Shown: positions 1 to 4,369, counted from the first letter of the stretch. The stretch: 4,369 nt of DNA from a virus (IMGVR_UViG_2585427751_000011:1-4369), one strand, 5' to 3'. Notes: generated by a model not told the origin, from the letters alone. Translations and numbers: made by a program.

Positions 1-228
1 ATCAAACTCCATTTGATATTAACTTTTGTTTATATCTTTATGTGGTTTATTTCAAAAATAACTCAATAAAAAACAAATAGATACAGAGCAAATTTAAAAA
101 TTTGAAATTAACCAGTTGATATTTACTAAGTTAATATCTAACATATCAAACATACACTAGTGAGTAACTCAATAGAGTAGCACACATGAGTAATAAAGTT
201 TGCCATAGAAAGTACACAGGGGGCCATT
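1..228. promoter_or_regulatory. AT-rich leader upstream of ner; putative early operator/promoter region of a Mu-like element
   Basis: No ORF in the six-frame track here. Strongly AT-rich compared with about 50% GC in the downstream coding DNA. Contains repeated TTGATAT/ATATCAA motifs (13-19, 116-122, 143-149) and the inverted repeat ATCAAA-n5-TTTGAT (1-17). In phage Mu the operator/Pe region lies immediately upstream of ner. Confidence 0.4.
116..144 (+). promoter_or_regulatory. Candidate sigma70-type early promoter (-35 TTGATA 116-121, 17-bp spacer, -10 TAACAT 139-144)
   Basis: Hexamers match consensus at 5/6 and 4/6 with a 17-bp spacer, oriented toward ner. An IHF-consensus match (TAAccagTTGATA, 109-121) overlaps the -35, and ACTAAGT (125-131) lies in the spacer. 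Such matches arise easily by chance in AT-rich DNA. Confidence 0.2.
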
Positions 229-474
229 GTGAGTCTTATTGAAGATTGGTCTTCCGCCGATATAAAGGCAGCCTTAGAAAAACGCGATACCAATTTGTCA
301 CGTTTATCAAGGGAAAATAATTTGCAGCCTAGGACTTTGGGTAATGCTTTGCGAGTTCCCTACCCTAAAGGTGAAAAGATAATTGCTAGGGCTATAGGTG
401 TAGAGCCACAGGTTATTTGGCCTACTAGATATGAACGACGTGCGCGGAGGAAATATGTGGGTTGCAATGACTGA
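229..474 (+). CDS. ner: Ner-like DNA-binding transcriptional regulator (Mu Ner / Nlp family)
   Basis: 81-aa ORF with a GTG start preceded by AGGGGG (218-223) at 5-nt spacing. The translation (…DWSSADIKAALEKRDTNLSRLSR…TLGNAL…YPKGEKIIARAIGVEPQVIWPTRY…) aligns by eye with Mu Ner (…DWHRADVIAGLKKRKLSLSALSR…TLANAL…WPKGEQIIANALETKPEVIWPSRY…). Position directly upstream of a MuA-like gene matches Mu gene order. Confidence 0.85.
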   Translation: MSLIEDWSSADIKAALEKRDTNLSRLSRENNLQPRTLGNALRVPYPKGEKIIARAIGVEPQVIWPTRYERRARRKYVGCND

Positions 475-2539
475 ATTGATTTCATTCAGTGACCTACCTA
501 GTTCTTTGGCAGGTCTGCACAAAAAAGCAAAGAGGGAAGCGTGGAAAACGCGGCTAAAACCAGGGGTAAAAGGGAAAGTTTTAGAGTGTGAAATAGGGGC
601 TTTGCCTTTAACTGTTCAGCAGGCAGTACGCGAACGCTATGCCCTGCAACTGATGACGCAAAAAGCCGATGAATCACCGGCTCCGGTAGTGACAAAGGCC
701 AGGCGCTCACCTGCCGTGGTTGATGCGGTGGAGGCATATCGCGGATCACCACAACTGATGCTCGAACGCCTCAATGCCCTGACTGAAAACCAGCGCCAGG
801 TGGCTGATGCACGAATCGCGATCGTCAGCGAAGTTCTGAAAGTCGCGCAACAACCTGGTTTCAGCTGTGCGAAGGCTATCCGGTTTATCGTTGACAACCT
901 GGCACGTTCGCAACTGGACGAGCGCATTGTGGCAATGGTTGAGACGGCGAACGCCAAAAAGGGAAACAGCCGTGCGTTGAGTGAAATCACGCTGAAACGC
1001 TGGATTGCAGCCTTTAACAAGGCGCAGAACGCCGCTGAACGCCTGCTTTTGCTGGCACCTGGTAAGCGCCAGGAAATAAAAGCCGAAGATATTAACTGGC
1101 TGCCCGAATTTCTGGCGCAGTATCGCCAGTCAAACGGCCGACCAATGACCGAGGCTTACGAGGATTTTGTCGCTGAATGGCAGCACCGGCACGCTGATGA
1201 GCCTTATATGCTCGATATCATGCCGTCTTACGACACCATCCGCCGCGCAATGAAGAAACTGCCGGAAGTGGTGAAACAAAAAGGCCGGGTGACCGGCAGT
1301 GAATACCGCCAGCTTGAGGGATTCACGCGCCGCGACTGGTCCAGAATGCCGGTGAATTATGTCTGGATTGGTGACGGTCACGGCATGAAGCTGAAATGCA
1401 GGCACCCGGTTCACGGGCGGCCATTTGCACCGGAAGTGACCTTTGTTATCGACGGTGGCACGCGCTTTGTGGTGGGCTGGAGCCTTGACCTGGCTGAAAA
1501 TGTTTTCGCCGTAGCCGGTGCCATACAGTACGGTATTCGTAATCACGGCAAACCGTTTCTGTATTACTCGGATAACGGTTCCGGGGAAACCGCCGACATC
1601 CTGGATAAGGAAGTTGTGGGGATCCTGCCGCGACTGGGGATTAATCACCCAACCGGGATTGCCGGTAACCCGCAGGGACGGGGCATTATCGAACGGCTTA
1701 ACCGCACGTTACCGATGCGTATAGCCCGTAAATACCGCACCTATTTCGGGAAAGGTGCAGATCGCGAGACGTTACGCAAAACCAACCGCGATTTACGCTC
1801 GGCATTTACCGCCCTGCAACAGGGCAAACGGCTGAACGCCCGGCAACAGTCAGCGATGCGTGATTTACCGTCCTGGTCTGAACTGATTGATGCCATTCGT
1901 GATGGCGTTGAGTGGTACAACAACCGGCCGCACGATGAATTACCCATGAAGCCGAACGGGAAGCATTACAGCCCGGCGGAGTTCAGAAAAAAACGCCTGG
2001 CAGAAGAGGACACGGAAATTGAATGGCTGTCCGATGTTGAGCTGCGGGATATGTTCCGGCCAATGGTGGAACGCCCTGTAAGACGCTGTGAAATACGCTG
2101 GCTGAATAATATTTACTACGCGCCCGAGCTGAGTGATGAGCATGGCCGCAAGGTGCTTATCAGCTATGACATTCATGATGCCGAACGAATTACCGTACGT
2201 CGCCCGGATGGCAGCGTGATTTGCGAGGCGGTATGGGACGGCAATAAACGCGAAGCCTTCCCGGTCAGCGCGGAATACTACAAACAGCAGCAACGCCTTA
2301 AAGGTATGCGTAAACGCGCAGAGGAAAAAATCCGTGATGCCGAGGATGAGGTTGTCAACGTGCTGGAGCACAAGCCGCAGGAGCCCTGGCTGGAAAACAT
2401 ATACCGCCCTGTGGGTAATACGGTGACCGTTCAGCAACCTGCCGTTGATGATGAGCCTGATGAAGAATACGAGCGTAATTTCCAGCGGGGATTGCAGTTG
2501 CTCGAAGCGAAATTAAAAGAAAATGACCCTCTGGCCTGA
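455..2539 (+). CDS. A: Mu-type DDE transposase (MuA homolog); ORF is open from 431 but ATG 455 is the better-supported start
   Basis: Long ORF (702 aa from 431, 694 aa from 455). N-terminus from 455 (MWVAMTELISFSDLPSSLAGLHKKAKREAW) aligns with Mu A (MELWVSPKECANLPGLPKTSAGVIYVAKKQGW). GGAGG at 446-450 precedes ATG 455. Core contains DDE-like motifs: VWIGDGHG (D codon 1373-1375), YYSDNGSG (D codon 1571-1573), GIIERLNRT (E codon 1691-1693). C-terminal IYRPVGNT…DDEPDEEYER resembles the MuA C-terminus IFRPSGNT…DDEYETERDEY. Overlaps the ner 3' end by 20 nt. Confidence 0.9.
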   Translation: MWVAMTELISFSDLPSSLAGLHKKAKREAWKTRLKPGVKGKVLECEIGALPLTVQQAVRERYALQLMTQKADESPAPVVTKARRSPAVVDAVEAYRGSPQLMLERLNALTENQRQVADARIAIVSEVLKVAQQPGFSCAKAIRFIVDNLARSQLDERIVAMVETANAKKGNSRALSEITLKRWIAAFNKAQNAAERLLLLAPGKRQEIKAEDINWLPEFLAQYRQSNGRPMTEAYEDFVAEWQHRHADEPYMLDIMPSYDTIRRAMKKLPEVVKQKGRVTGSEYRQLEGFTRRDWSRMPVNYVWIGDGHGMKLKCRHPVHGRPFAPEVTFVIDGGTRFVVGWSLDLAENVFAVAGAIQYGIRNHGKPFLYYSDNGSGETADILDKEVVGILPRLGINHPTGIAGNPQGRGIIERLNRTLPMRIARKYRTYFGKGADRETLRKTNRDLRSAFTALQQGKRLNARQQSAMRDLPSWSELIDAIRDGVEWYNNRPHDELPMKPNGKHYSPAEFRKKRLAEEDTEIEWLSDVELRDMFRPMVERPVRRCEIRWLNNIYYAPELSDEHGRKVLISYDIHDAERITVRRPDGSVICEAVWDGNKREAFPVSAEYYKQQQRLKGMRKRAEEKIRDAEDEVVNVLEHKPQEPWLENIYRPVGNTVTVQQPAVDDEPDEEYERNFQRGLQLLEAKLKENDPLA

Positions 2540-2546
2540 AATAAAA

Positions 2547-2576
2547 AAATAACCCGAGCGGCGACTCAGGTTATTT
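2547..2576 (+). terminator. Stem-loop with flanking A/T runs between A and B; possible weak intrinsic terminator or attenuator
   Basis: AAATAACC (2547-2554) pairs with GGTTATTT (2569-2576), with inner pairs 2556-2558 to 2565-2567 and a 6-nt loop. Sits 8 nt after the A stop codon and is followed by GATT. The stem is AT-rich and therefore weak. Confidence 0.25.
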
Positions 2577-2614
2577 GATTAAACAAAGGAACTACACAAA
2601 CGCGAGGTAATAAT

Positions 2615-3136
2615 ATGACCGATATAAACGATGTAATCAAGACCATTGATGAACTTATTGATGGCGGCGTGCTGACGCAGTATGCCATCGCCAGAGAGGC
2701 GGGAATTTCCGACGGCACATTATCGGCTTTCCGCAAGGGGAAATATAAAGGCGATAACGCCGCTGTGGCTGCTTCCCTGCGCTCCTGGTATGAGAACTGG
2801 AATAAACAAAGCGCACTGCCGGAACCGCCGCAGTTTGTGGAAACTCAGACAGTCCAGGAGCTGCGCGCACTGTTTCAGGCGGTTCGCCTGATGGGCTGTA
2901 TTAACGTTATTGTGGGCGTACCGGGTGTGGGTAAAACGGCCACTGCCCGTAATTACTGCCAGGAGCAACCAAACACCTGGATGATCACCCTGTCACCCGC
3001 GCACTCCAGCGTCACGGAGTGTCTGCTGGAGCTGGCCGATGCGCTGGGGATTGATTACACCCGCGCGAACAAAGGGGCATTATCTGTAAACGGTGAGCCG
3101 GGCTTACGGCCCGGCCCCTGCGGAGGGCAAATATGA
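2615..3136 (+). CDS. B: MuB-like AAA+ ATPase (target DNA activator), 3'-truncated: N-terminal HTH and Walker A only; probably non-functional
   Basis: 173-aa ORF with GAGGT (2604-2608) 6 nt before the ATG. The HTH region YAIAREAGISDGTLSAFRKGKYKGDN matches Mu B (QIALESGLSTGTISSFINDKYNGDN); PEPPQFVETQTV is nearly identical; Walker A is GVPGVGKT; WMIT…ECL.ELA matches. Similarity ends after …KGALS (about 3085) and the ORF stops at 3134-3136. Mu B is about 312 aa and continues with the Walker B region (…LVIIDEADHL…); no such continuation exists in any frame downstream. Confidence 0.8.
   Translation: MTDINDVIKTIDELIDGGVLTQYAIAREAGISDGTLSAFRKGKYKGDNAAVAASLRSWYENWNKQSALPEPPQFVETQTVQELRALFQAVRLMGCINVIVGVPGVGKTATARNYCQEQPNTWMITLSPAHSSVTECLLELADALGIDYTRANKGALSVNGEPGLRPGPCGGQI
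3097..3115 (+). other. Perfect GC-only hairpin (7-bp stem GCCGGGC/GCCCGGC, 5-nt loop TTACG) at the point where MuB homology ends
   Basis: Base pairs 3097-3103 with 3109-3115 read directly from the sequence. It lies within the last, non-homologous codons of the truncated B ORF and about 18 nt upstream of ATG 3133. Confidence 0.45.
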
Positions 3137-3486
3137 ATGAACATCACACTGTGGCAGCAACAGATGATTCAGGCCTTCAGGTCAGTGGTGACAGTCCTGT
3201 CACGGTACTGGCAGAAGTGCGTTGCAGTCGTGCGCAGTTTCGTCGTGCGGGGTTCCTGTTCATGCGGGGACGCCAGCAGGTTGACGTCACCCCGGAGCAG
3301 CTTGCCCGACTGGAAGCGGAGCCATGCCTCACTGTACGAATACTACAGACGCCTGGTGATGATGCGGGAGCCGTGGCGGGTGTGGTTCATGCAGAGACCG
3401 GTGCAGATTTAGCCGAAGCCGGACAGGATGCTCCCCGGAAAAAGACCGGCAATAACGCCAGACAGGCGAAAAAGGCTCGCGCATGA
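3133..3486 (+). CDS. Hypothetical protein (117 aa), GC-rich, basic C-terminal tail
   Basis: ATG 3133 is preceded by GGAGGG (3122-3127) at 5-nt spacing. Start overlaps the B' stop (ATGA) and the stop overlaps the next ATG (ATGA at 3483-3486). First codon positions are G-rich, as expected for real coding sequence. No family recognised. Caveat: in GC-rich DNA open frames occur by chance; the alternative ORF 3137-3412 is in the same frame as B'. Confidence 0.45.
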   Translation: MNEHHTVAATDDSGLQVSGDSPVTVLAEVRCSRAQFRRAGFLFMRGRQQVDVTPEQLARLEAEPCLTVRILQTPGDDAGAVAGVVHAETGADLAEAGQDAPRKKTGNNARQAKKARA

Positions 3487-3719
3487 ATTACGCCAACGGT
3501 TACACCGAAACGCAGGCCGACAGTGGCGCGGTGATGTATGCGCTTTATTTCTCCTGCGAGGAAATGATCGCACCGCTGACTGATATCAGCTCGCTGGATG
3601 ATTTCCTGCGCCATTACGAAACCTTCACCGAACCGGAAGGCACACCGGAATTTAAGGCGCACATCAGCCTGCCAGGTGCAACCGCCGCCGGTGAAAAAGC
3701 CGGACCGTCAGAGGAATAA
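3483..3719 (+). CDS. Hypothetical small acidic protein (78 aa)
   Basis: ATG overlaps the upstream stop (ATGA); AAAGG lies 7 nt upstream. Translation has about 14 Asp/Glu against 3 Lys/Arg. The next gene's SD (GAGGAA, 3711-3716) is embedded in its 3' end. No family recognised. Confidence 0.45.
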   Translation: MNYANGYTETQADSGAVMYALYFSCEEMIAPLTDISSLDDFLRHYETFTEPEGTPEFKAHISLPGATAAGEKAGPSEE

Positions 3720-3722
3720 CAG

Positions 3723-4010
3723 ATGACAACCATTTTTATCAAACCCGCGCCGGGATGCCTGATCCGCGATCCGGACACCATGAAACCGCTGGCGCAGGAG
3801 GGAGAGGAAAAACCCTTCACCCCGTTCTGGTGCCGCCGTCTTAATGACGGGGACGTCATTGTGGTGGAAAAAGCGGCTGAAGCAGCACCGGCAGCAGCGT
3901 CTGCAACGACTGATGCCGCCGGAAAACCCGCGGGAGCGGCAGCAGAAAAACCTGCGACTGAAAAACCCGCGACTGAAAAACCCGCAGCATCAGACAAGGG
4001 GACGTCCTGA
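3723..4010 (+). CDS. Small protein preceding the tail sheath gene (recalled as DUF2635 / Mu gp38-like); C-terminal Ala/Pro/Lys-rich tail with (EKPAT) repeats
   Basis: GAGGAA sits 8 nt before ATG 3723; the stop overlaps the sheath ATG (TGATG at 4008-4012). The N-terminal half (MTTIFIKPAPGCLIRDPDTMKPL…FWCRRLNDGDVIVVE) resembles, from memory, the short conserved ORF found just upstream of sheath genes in Mu-like tail modules. The C-terminus is low-complexity, encoded by the tandem repeat. Confidence 0.6.
   Translation: MTTIFIKPAPGCLIRDPDTMKPLAQEGEEKPFTPFWCRRLNDGDVIVVEKAAEAAPAAASATTDAAGKPAGAAAEKPATEKPATEKPAASDKGTS
3945..3989 (+). repeat. 15-bp tandem repeat, about 3 copies (GAAAAACCYGCGACT), in frame, encoding EKPAT-EKPAT-EKPAA; degenerate copy at 3921-3935
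   Basis: Units at 3945-3959, 3960-3974 and 3975-3989 read directly. Copies 1 and 2 differ at one base; copy 3 diverges in its last 4 nt. Confidence 0.8.
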
Positions 4011-4369
4011 TGATTAACTTTGATTATATCGGCGATAACAATCGCATTCCGCTGGTACAGATTGAAATCAATAATTCAATGGCCGTGACCGGCACTCCAC
4101 CACAGCGTCAGGCGGTACTGTTGTTTGGTCAGGCTGCAATGAAAGACACCACCATTCAGGGGCGCGGTCAGCTTGATGTACCAGTACGTATTACCCGAGC
4201 TTCACAAGCAAGAGAACTCTGGGGGCGAGGTTCCATGATTGCACTGATGGTAGAGGAATTTATCGCCATTAACCCTGACACAGAGTTATATGCCATTGCA
4301 CAGGGGGCTGGAACAGGTCAGTCCAGGGCATGCGTGATGAATATCATTGGAACAGCATTGGCAGACGGG
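4010..4369 (+). CDS. Phage tail sheath protein, N-terminal part (Mu gpL-like); continues beyond the window end
   Basis: ATG 4010 with AAGGGG 8 nt upstream; open to the window end (120 codons, no stop). Translation MINFDYIGDNNRIPLVQIEINNSMAVTGTPPQRQAVLLFGQ…RASQARELWGRGSMIALMVEEFIAINPDTELYAIA… fits the remembered N-terminal pattern of Mu-like sheath proteins (…FDNS.A…LL.GQ…A…FG.GS.LA.MV…N…ELW…). Confidence 0.65.
   Translation, partial: MINFDYIGDNNRIPLVQIEINNSMAVTGTPPQRQAVLLFGQAAMKDTTIQGRGQLDVPVRITRASQARELWGRGSMIALMVEEFIAINPDTELYAIAQGAGTGQSRACVMNIIGTALADG

Follow-up and report, generated by a model that had tools for sequence, protein, structure and literature searches.

A probable 16.8-kb deletion fuses a MuB-like gene to the end of the major head gene T, next to a native stem-loop, in a Mu-like prophage remnant of Escherichia coli

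INTRODUCTION

In phages T7 and SPP1, a stable hairpin lies directly 3' of a top-expressed structural gene, and the genes downstream of it have the same orientation. T-phi, which follows gene 10 of T7, is a classic and experimentally verified terminator for the phage RNA polymerase. In SPP1, gene 13 for the major capsid protein ends at 8777, and a terminator is predicted at 8775–8815 (PMC6316719). Phage Mu has a comparable element, i.e., a stem-loop at 20068–20087 of the reference record (AF083977.1), with the stem AAAAGGCGGT TCAG ACCGCCTTTT, which follows the major head gene T and is annotated as "terminator, predicted by TransTermHP." One account of Mu late transcription names four promoters for late genes, Plys, PI, PP, and Pmom (PMC2582627). 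Our search of the literature returned nothing specific on an experimentally mapped terminator after T of Mu or in Mu-like phages.

The stretch of DNA analyzed here (4,369 nucleotides; IMGVR_UViG_2585427751_000011:1-4369), which we refer to as the window, is the left part of a 13.1-kb Mu-like prophage remnant of E. coli. Like decayed or cryptic prophages, the remnant has several deletions at microhomologies of 1–6 bp with breakpoints within genes, has lost the head and lysis modules, and is inherited at one chromosomal site. Unlike them, it keeps c, ner, a full-length transposase gene, and both intact termini, which is unusual for remnants. In these respects, it resembles mini-Mu elements and Mu A+ B− derivatives, in that both ends, the repressor, ner, and A are kept, B is inactivated, morphogenetic genes are deleted, and host deletions are anchored exactly at the element ends. 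It differs from them in being of natural origin, in having a transposase that is only very distantly related to Mu A, and in that activity is inferred from the comparison of strains.

The initial annotation of the window proposed a recombination breakpoint at 3086–3135, where a loss of similarity to Mu B, an increase in GC content, and a perfect GC hairpin coincide. Here, we identify what was joined at this position and analyze the hairpin in intact Mu-like prophages and in more distant relatives.

RESULTS

Organization of the window

The window is 100% identical to part of the E. coli draft contig JOQJ01000032.1 and to two metagenome/SRA contigs. Its features, in window coordinates, are as follows.

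229–474, plus strand: ner-like early regulator (HTH_35; Pfam PF13693, E = 6.7e-27), annotated as a helix-turn-helix protein in intact relatives
455–2539, plus strand: transposase A, full length, 694 aa from the ATG at 455 (Pfam Mu-transpos_C and HTH_Tnp_Mu_1)
2615–3136, plus strand: B', 173 aa, a truncated MuB-like AAA+ ATPase followed by 16 out-of-frame codons (alignments and PDB search)
3079–3084, no strand: junction of deletion 1 with the 6-bp microhomology ATTATC (end of the left homology and start of the right homology in a three-way alignment)
3079–3089, plus strand: last 11 nt of the major head gene T with the stop codon TAA at 3087–3089 (L001 3001–3011, the annotated end of the gpT CDS)
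3097–3115, plus strand: native stem-loop of the T/HI1506 spacer, with seven G-C pairs, a possible U-G closing pair, and no U-tract
3122–3127, plus strand: Shine-Dalgarno sequence GGAGGG of the HI1506-related gene, identified from the sequence and outside the main stem in every fold
3133–3486, plus strand: HI1506-related protein, the Mu gp35 equivalent (head-to-tail connector; Pfam FluMu_N, E = 3e-9; RefSeq and Mu annotations)
3483–3719, plus strand: 78-aa in-frame fusion of gp436 (Mu J) and DUF1834 (Mu K), from the comparison with the intact prophage AF39
3723–4010, plus strand: DUF2635 protein (Mu gp38 equivalent; Pfam PF10948, E = 9e-20)
4010–4369, plus strand: 5' part of the tail sheath gene (Mu L equivalent), which runs off the end of the window (99% identity to the AF39 sheath gene)

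The A reading frame is open from 431, and the gene has the same length as in intact prophages. Pfam Phage_sheath_1 was found on the full-length sheath gene in other copies of the remnant (L003–L011). In a megablast search of INPHARED, the only matches were two Stx phages with an inserted Mu-like phage, which gave no information additional to that from the E. coli genomes.

Window 1–616 is without a counterpart in many E. coli relatives, which match from 617 onward; based on this pattern, the operator/ner/5'-A segment represents a separate mosaic (immunity) module. The similarity of the transposase to Mu A is very remote (PDB 4fcy, E = 0.33), and the part that matches Mu A is the N-terminal DNA-binding domain only (3e-5); because this match is weak and N-terminal, the DDE residues of the transposase are not checkable by alignment to Mu A. 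The B and T proteins are close to those of Mu, unlike the transposase, i.e., this prophage family pairs Mu-like head and B genes with a divergent transposase. Between the A stop codon (2539) and the B start codon (2615), there is a long, A/T-flanked stem-loop at 2547–2576 (AAATAACCCGAG...CTCAGGTTATTT), which was called on the minus strand by a terminator scan, has an RNA-fold z score of −2.2 relative to shuffles, and may be an attenuator between A and B. Near the other end of the window, where the DUF2635 C-terminus is encoded, 2.7 copies of a 15-bp unit (GAAAAACCCGCGACT) are repeated in tandem at 3945–3985; they encode EKPAT repeats, and the copy number differs among loci, giving rise to 90-aa versus 95-aa alleles.

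B is joined to the end of the major head gene T

In megablast comparisons with intact prophages, homology extended from position 1 to 3084 of the window and then ended, in 13 full-length as well as in >200 partial E. coli matches. In intact E. coli Mu-like prophages, this segment is ner-A-B. The right block (3079–4369) matched complete E. coli genomes with up to 99% identity and is annotated there as the end of gpT followed by the HI1506-related, gp436, DUF1834, DUF2635, and tail sheath genes, with window position 3079 corresponding to the 11th base from the end of T. In AF39, window 617–3084 maps to 5936–8410 and window 3079–3495 to 25238–25654 (AF39rc coordinates); the two halves have the same orientation in this single intact prophage and lie 16,833 bp apart, with 96–99% identity. 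The three-way alignment places ATTATC once in the window and once at each parent site, one of which is within B and the other 11 nt upstream of the T end. The join has no added bases, no IS end, and no att site, and the microhomology is kept once.

The 16,833 bp missing from the remnant contain about 29 annotated CDS. The C-terminal half of B, kil, gam, and the remaining early region are lost, as are Mor, the lysis genes, the terminase/packaging, portal, and protease/scaffold genes, and almost all of T. In intact AF39, an additional feature annotated in RefSeq as "tRNA-OTHER" lies between the minor head and virion morphogenesis genes (L001 169–248, minus strand), and it is among the DNA deleted in the window.

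Because both sides are collinear with one intact prophage, these data support an internal deletion and not the acquisition of foreign DNA. Illegitimate recombination across the ATTATC repeat would have fused the MuB-like gene, at its codon 157, to the final 11 nt of T. As judged by this comparison, the joined DNA is rearranged and not foreign. The suggestion in the initial annotation that foreign or rearranged DNA was joined here is, therefore, borne out for rearrangement, with the join at 3079–3084, only 1–6 nt from the position proposed, but not for a foreign origin.

In the assembly collection, 62 blocks index the exact 173-aa B', and we read 24 of the carrier contigs. These carriers are from NCBI isolates, ENA metagenomes, and Logan/SRA assemblies, and their DNA is 99.6–100% identical. 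The recurrence of the exact fusion in independent assemblies argues that the join is not an assembly artifact. Database entries for B' from several E. coli isolates also exist, under the names "AAA family ATPase" and "DNA transposition domain protein." By contrast, the junction is absent from all 5426 complete RefSeq E. coli genomes.

B' is a fragment of a Mu B homolog

The intact 310-aa B protein is a clear homolog of Mu B (PDB 8xvb, E = 2.7e-84). All of the residues 1–157 of B' are identical to those of intact B (157/157), and homology stops at 3084, in agreement with the initial annotation in which similarity to Mu B ends at about 3085; the 16 residues that follow are unrelated and end in SVNGEPGLRPGPCGGQI. 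These 16 codons are read out of frame from the 3' end of T and the spacer downstream of it. B' keeps the N-terminal domain and the Walker A motif (GVPGVGKT) and is without the Walker B motif (VIVDEAD, in LVIVDEADHLG) and the C-terminal DNA-binding domain, since residues 158–310 are encoded by the deleted DNA. Based on the deletion of the Walker B motif and the C-terminal domain, we regard B' as a fragment and not as a functional member of the MuB family, and it is predicted to be ATPase-dead.

Within the remnant, the hairpin coincides with codons 161–167 of B' (EPGLRPG), and the B' stop codon TGA (3134–3136) overlaps the start codon of the next gene at 3133 (ATGA). The deletion would also have placed the surviving late genes straight behind the early ner-A-B' operon, leaving the early promoter as the sole promoter upstream of them. 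The position of the hairpin in B', the ATGA overlap, and the location of late genes behind an early promoter are accidental by-products of the deletion.

The hairpin is present in intact prophages

The hairpin consists of GCCGGGC (3097–3103), the loop TTACG, and GCCCGGC (3109–3115), exactly the 7-bp all-GC stem with a 5-nt loop that was described initially. It is the sole perfect all-GC 7-bp hairpin in the window, and at least one such hairpin occurred in 4.6% of 1000 dinucleotide shuffles. A gap of 7 nt separates it from the T stop codon upstream and a gap of 17 nt from the connector gene start downstream, and a 24-nt window at this position folds at −16.3 kcal/mol with a stem of 7–8 bp.

The 57 nt at 3079–3135, which comprise the T stop codon, the 7-nt gap, the hairpin, GGAGGG, and the ATG, are 100% identical in intact prophages; accordingly, the GGAGGG at 3122–3127 and the ATG at 3133 noted initially are found in those prophages as well. 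Identity of this piece was 100% in the complete genomes listed and at least 99% in 207 records, and its annotation was always gpT/HI1506. The sequence was found in a Mu-like prophage context only, in 232 of the 5426 genomes and at a median of 2 and a maximum of 8 places per genome. Among viral contigs, the E. coli-type spacer is identical in 12 of 13 loci, and in the 13th, a G-C pair is replaced with a G-U pair by a single C-to-T substitution. In AF39, the 43-nt T/HI1506 spacer is the only sizeable gap from the protease I gene to the tail tube gene, and at all other boundaries in this interval, the genes overlap or are separated by up to 14 nt.

As the whole 57-nt context already exists in intact prophages between gpT and the HI1506-related gene, the hairpin is not the recombination scar that had been considered. 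In this comparison, it predates the deletion and was not made by it.

Strong hairpins recur after T

Mu has a hairpin with an unrelated stem at the same place. As in the E. coli prophages, a few nucleotides separate the stop codon of T from a strong, GC-rich stem with a short loop, and the connector gene's Shine-Dalgarno sequence comes after this stem; the flanking genes are orthologous, with gp35 being the HI1506 homolog. In loci with the Mu spacer, the T protein is 91% identical to the E. coli prophage T used here. The two elements differ in that the stem of Mu is flanked by an A-run and a T-run, like that of a classic bidirectional intrinsic terminator, whereas the stem in the E. coli prophages is all G-C and without a U-tract; the terminator role is predicted for the Mu hairpin and putative for the E. 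coli hairpin. Enterobacterial relatives in which T is 68–85% identical have yet other stems, and in total, at least five unrelated stem sequences were observed.

For a broader survey, we used 160 T-homolog loci from genomes and viral contigs. The 70 nt that follow the T stop codon made up 120 distinct regions, which we compared with coding 70-mers of the same locus as the background. Conservation here means the outcome of this positional energy test and not of a formal covariation test, as the spacers of different groups cannot be aligned. In 47.5% of the 120 regions, the best hairpin was stronger than those in at least 95% of the coding 70-mers of its own locus (5% expected), and the median hairpin energy after T was −15.4 kcal/mol versus a background mean of −10.6 kcal/mol. 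Among diverse bacteria, the stem sequences after T are unrelated, but a hairpin recurs at this position. No outstanding hairpin follows about half of the T homologs, and on visual impression, these are mostly loci in which the next ORF follows within a few nucleotides.

Only 11 of the 78 strong hairpins have at least four T's in the next 8 nt. No U-rich tract is present directly 3' of the E. coli stem, the tail of which is CCCTGCGG. In a scan for terminator and promoter consensus sequences, the hairpin was not called, and the totals were no higher than in shuffles. Similarly, the fold of the 101 nt at 3060–3160 was not better than that of shuffles (z = −0.92), so that the local stem alone is notable.

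GC content at the join and alternative explanations

GC content is 55.1% in B' (2615–3084) and 58.2% at 3085–4010. The mean GC content of 60-nt lines is 54.0% to the left and 58.2% to the right (Mann-Whitney, P = 0.04). With 300-nt flanks, the step at the join is 3.3 points, which is matched or exceeded at 48% of the positions in an intact relative; with 926-nt flanks, it is 5.7 points, which is matched or exceeded at 18% of the positions. A GC jump as proposed in the initial annotation is, thus, present at 3–6 points but was overstated, and it lies within the normal variation of an intact prophage; the four lines counted by hand were counted correctly (0.683, 0.633, 0.50, and 0.55) but were not representative. 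The difference is a normal difference between early and late modules within the variation of intact AF39. Composition alone does not identify the breakpoint; comparison with intact relatives does.

These data bear on the idea that foreign DNA was acquired from 3086 onward with the GC jump as a mosaic boundary. The GC content is slightly higher to the right of the junction, and Mu-like prophages are mosaic elsewhere, as in the left 616 nt of the window; however, the GC step is within the native variation of AF39, and the right block, which the initial annotation had proposed to search for in another context, is found in >200 genomes at its normal position after T. The collinearity of both sides with AF39 counts as refuting a foreign origin, which we consider extremely improbable. 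A different proposal is that the hairpin helped to cause the deletion, with the hairpin stalling replication or being cut and the free end re-annealing at ATTATC 12 nt upstream. In the 37.5-kb intact prophage, the hairpin after T is among only four with a folding energy of −16.3 kcal/mol or lower (24-nt windows), and with 0.58% of all positions within 15 nt of such a hairpin, at least one of the eight deletion endpoints would be that close by chance in about 4.5% of cases. This coincidence test is post hoc and borderline, however, and the other seven endpoints are not beside such a hairpin, the nearest being about 150 nt away. Moreover, the hairpin lies outside the deleted interval, and palindromes known to provoke breakage are far longer than a 7-bp stem. 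A causal role is, therefore, unlikely, although the hairpin may have contributed passively via stalling and template switching.

Two further alternatives concern what the hairpin does. A regulatory structure ahead of the 3133 start codon was the suggestion in the initial annotation that came closest, but the element is better described as a stem-loop following the major head gene than as a regulator of translation by which the ribosome-binding site of the 3133 gene is masked. The hairpin does end 6 nt before GGAGGG, and in one fold, a weak 4-bp helix pairs 3116–3119 with 3124–3127. Yet, when the proposed occlusion was checked by RNA folding, the Shine-Dalgarno sequence was never in the main stem, and the small second helix was marginal, with partners that changed with the length of the fold. 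Also, the hairpins of the family are anchored near the T stop codon and are at variable distances from the next start codon. We consider translational regulation of this kind very unlikely. Even less probable is that the palindrome is a REP-like host element, as had also been proposed, or a DNA site for a dimeric protein. GCCGGGC-N5-GCCCGGC is a perfect DNA palindrome, as such a site might be; however, REP and BIME elements share a consensus and are scattered over each enterobacterial chromosome in hundreds of copies, whereas this sequence, found in a minority of the genomes and at few places in each, is not dispersed through every chromosome. No Rfam match was obtained for the whole window at E ≤ 1. 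In related phages, the sequence of the stem changes completely, while the hairpin and its position stay; this turnover of the stem with retention of the structure argues for an RNA or single-strand structure and against a sequence-specific site.

The remnant has four internal deletions

Comparison of the remnant with AF39 identified four internal deletions, which leave 13.1 kb in full-length loci.

Deletion 1: 16,833 bp, from codon 157 in B to a site 11 nt upstream of the T end; microhomology of 6 nt (ATTATC)
Deletion 2: 743 bp, from gp436 (Mu J), at its codon 4, to the DUF1834 (Mu K) C-terminus, with the junction at 3495; microhomology of 1 nt
Deletion 3: about 5.2 kb, from the sheath C-terminus to baseplate P, outside the window; microhomology of 2 nt (TG)
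Deletion 4: about 3.1 kb, further tail genes, outside the window; microhomology of 5 nt (TAACG)

The product of deletion 2 is an in-frame ORF of 78 aa, consisting of 4 codons of gp436 and the C-terminal 74 codons of DUF1834. In the assembly collection, 82 blocks index this fusion, which is recorded as a "hypothetical protein."

A Mu-like prophage in glpQ (L012 8007–10862; GCA_000700725.1) has a different c/ner and an A gene that is 3.8% divergent from that of the window. It is 100% identical to window 2627–3476, including the B'/T junction, and its contig ends 19 nt before the second junction. This locus is either a recombinant of co-resident prophages or an assembly chimera.

Host junctions of the remnant vary

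We mapped the flanks of the remnant (L003–L011 and L176–L184) on a locus with an uninterrupted uidA-malX-malY region (L093). There are at least four left host junctions, at L093 positions 3345, 7738, 8103, and 8175, each in at least two independent samples, and at least three right host junctions, at 8278, 8443, and 8848. All of them end on the first base (TGTAACC...) or the last base (...GCTATA) of the element. Three loci were read at both junctions, and the host intervals missing from them all overlap at 8176–8277. Otherwise, the host flanks are 99.98–100% identical, and the carriers represent a near-clonal E. coli lineage.

The same four-times-deleted element has differing host junctions, a pattern indicating that the host deletions were repeated, end-anchored, and later than the internal deletions. 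Mu-mediated adjacent deletions have been classically described, and loss of B, a target-delivery and immunity factor, would be expected to favor them. The comparison of strains suggests that the transposase of the remnant is still active. Tentatively, the remnant could be a natural B-less mini-Mu whose transposase still makes local adjacent deletions, a reading that we regard as plausible without leaning toward it.

In the commonest flank class, GGTCTG abuts the element on both sides (L004 6569–6574 and 19683–19688; L093 8170–8175 and 8443–8448). The two copies of GGTCTG are 267 bp apart in the uninterrupted malX, and a simple model of adjacent deletions leaves the shared 6 nt unexplained. A local hop of the remnant between L003 and L004, with GGTCTG resembling a target duplication, was considered and rejected, given the 267 bp between the copies and the fact that nested deletions suffice. 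At the intact AF39 copy, the flanking duplication has 4 nt and not 5 nt.

A 1.3-kb tail-fiber assembly segment (locus positions 13216–14542) beside a gene for a Gin-like resolvase is inverted in L003 and L005 relative to L004. With both orientations present in otherwise near-identical remnants, the invertase appears to be still working.

DISCUSSION

Here, we analyzed a junction in a Mu-like prophage remnant of E. coli. We consider it very likely that a 16.8-kb deletion by illegitimate recombination joined B to the end of T and that the hairpin next to the join is the phage's own stem-loop, with a putative role as a leaky terminator or stabilizer. The junction itself is ordinary prophage decay, and there is nothing unusual in it.

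What the stem-loop after T does has to be compatible with the transcription of the genes behind it. To our knowledge, no Mu late promoter lies between T and P, and therefore, the connector and tail genes need read-through of the stem-loop. Because the downstream genes are transcribed through it, the stem-loop cannot be an efficient terminator, and the low number of strong hairpins with a T-rich tail also fits a leaky element better than an efficient terminator. The hairpins of T7 and SPP1 differ in this respect, as they have U-tracts. Based on its position, its conservation, and the analogy to these systems, the hairpin is most likely a leaky terminator or an mRNA 3' stabilizer. On the late mRNA, it would cause leaky termination or form a barrier to 3' exonucleases, and the I-T mRNA would stay in excess over the connector/tail mRNA downstream. 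In the remnant, where its normal context is lost, the hairpin probably does little.

For annotation, these results mean that the GC hairpin belongs in the record as a T-following stem-loop, as in the Mu reference record, and that the 173-aa "AAA family ATPase" and the 78-aa "hypothetical protein" are deletion fusions and not genes in their own right. The finding is of modest interest, which lies in the stem-loop that is conserved after T and in a B-less remnant that is apparently active, while the interest of the breakpoint itself is low; for the specialist, it is limited to a B-less remnant that is apparently still remodeling its chromosomal flanks. More generally, Mu-like prophages of many bacterial groups recurrently have a strong stem-loop behind the major head gene, and this usually has no U-tract. 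It offers a cheap and testable handle on the unequal output of head versus tail proteins from one late operon.
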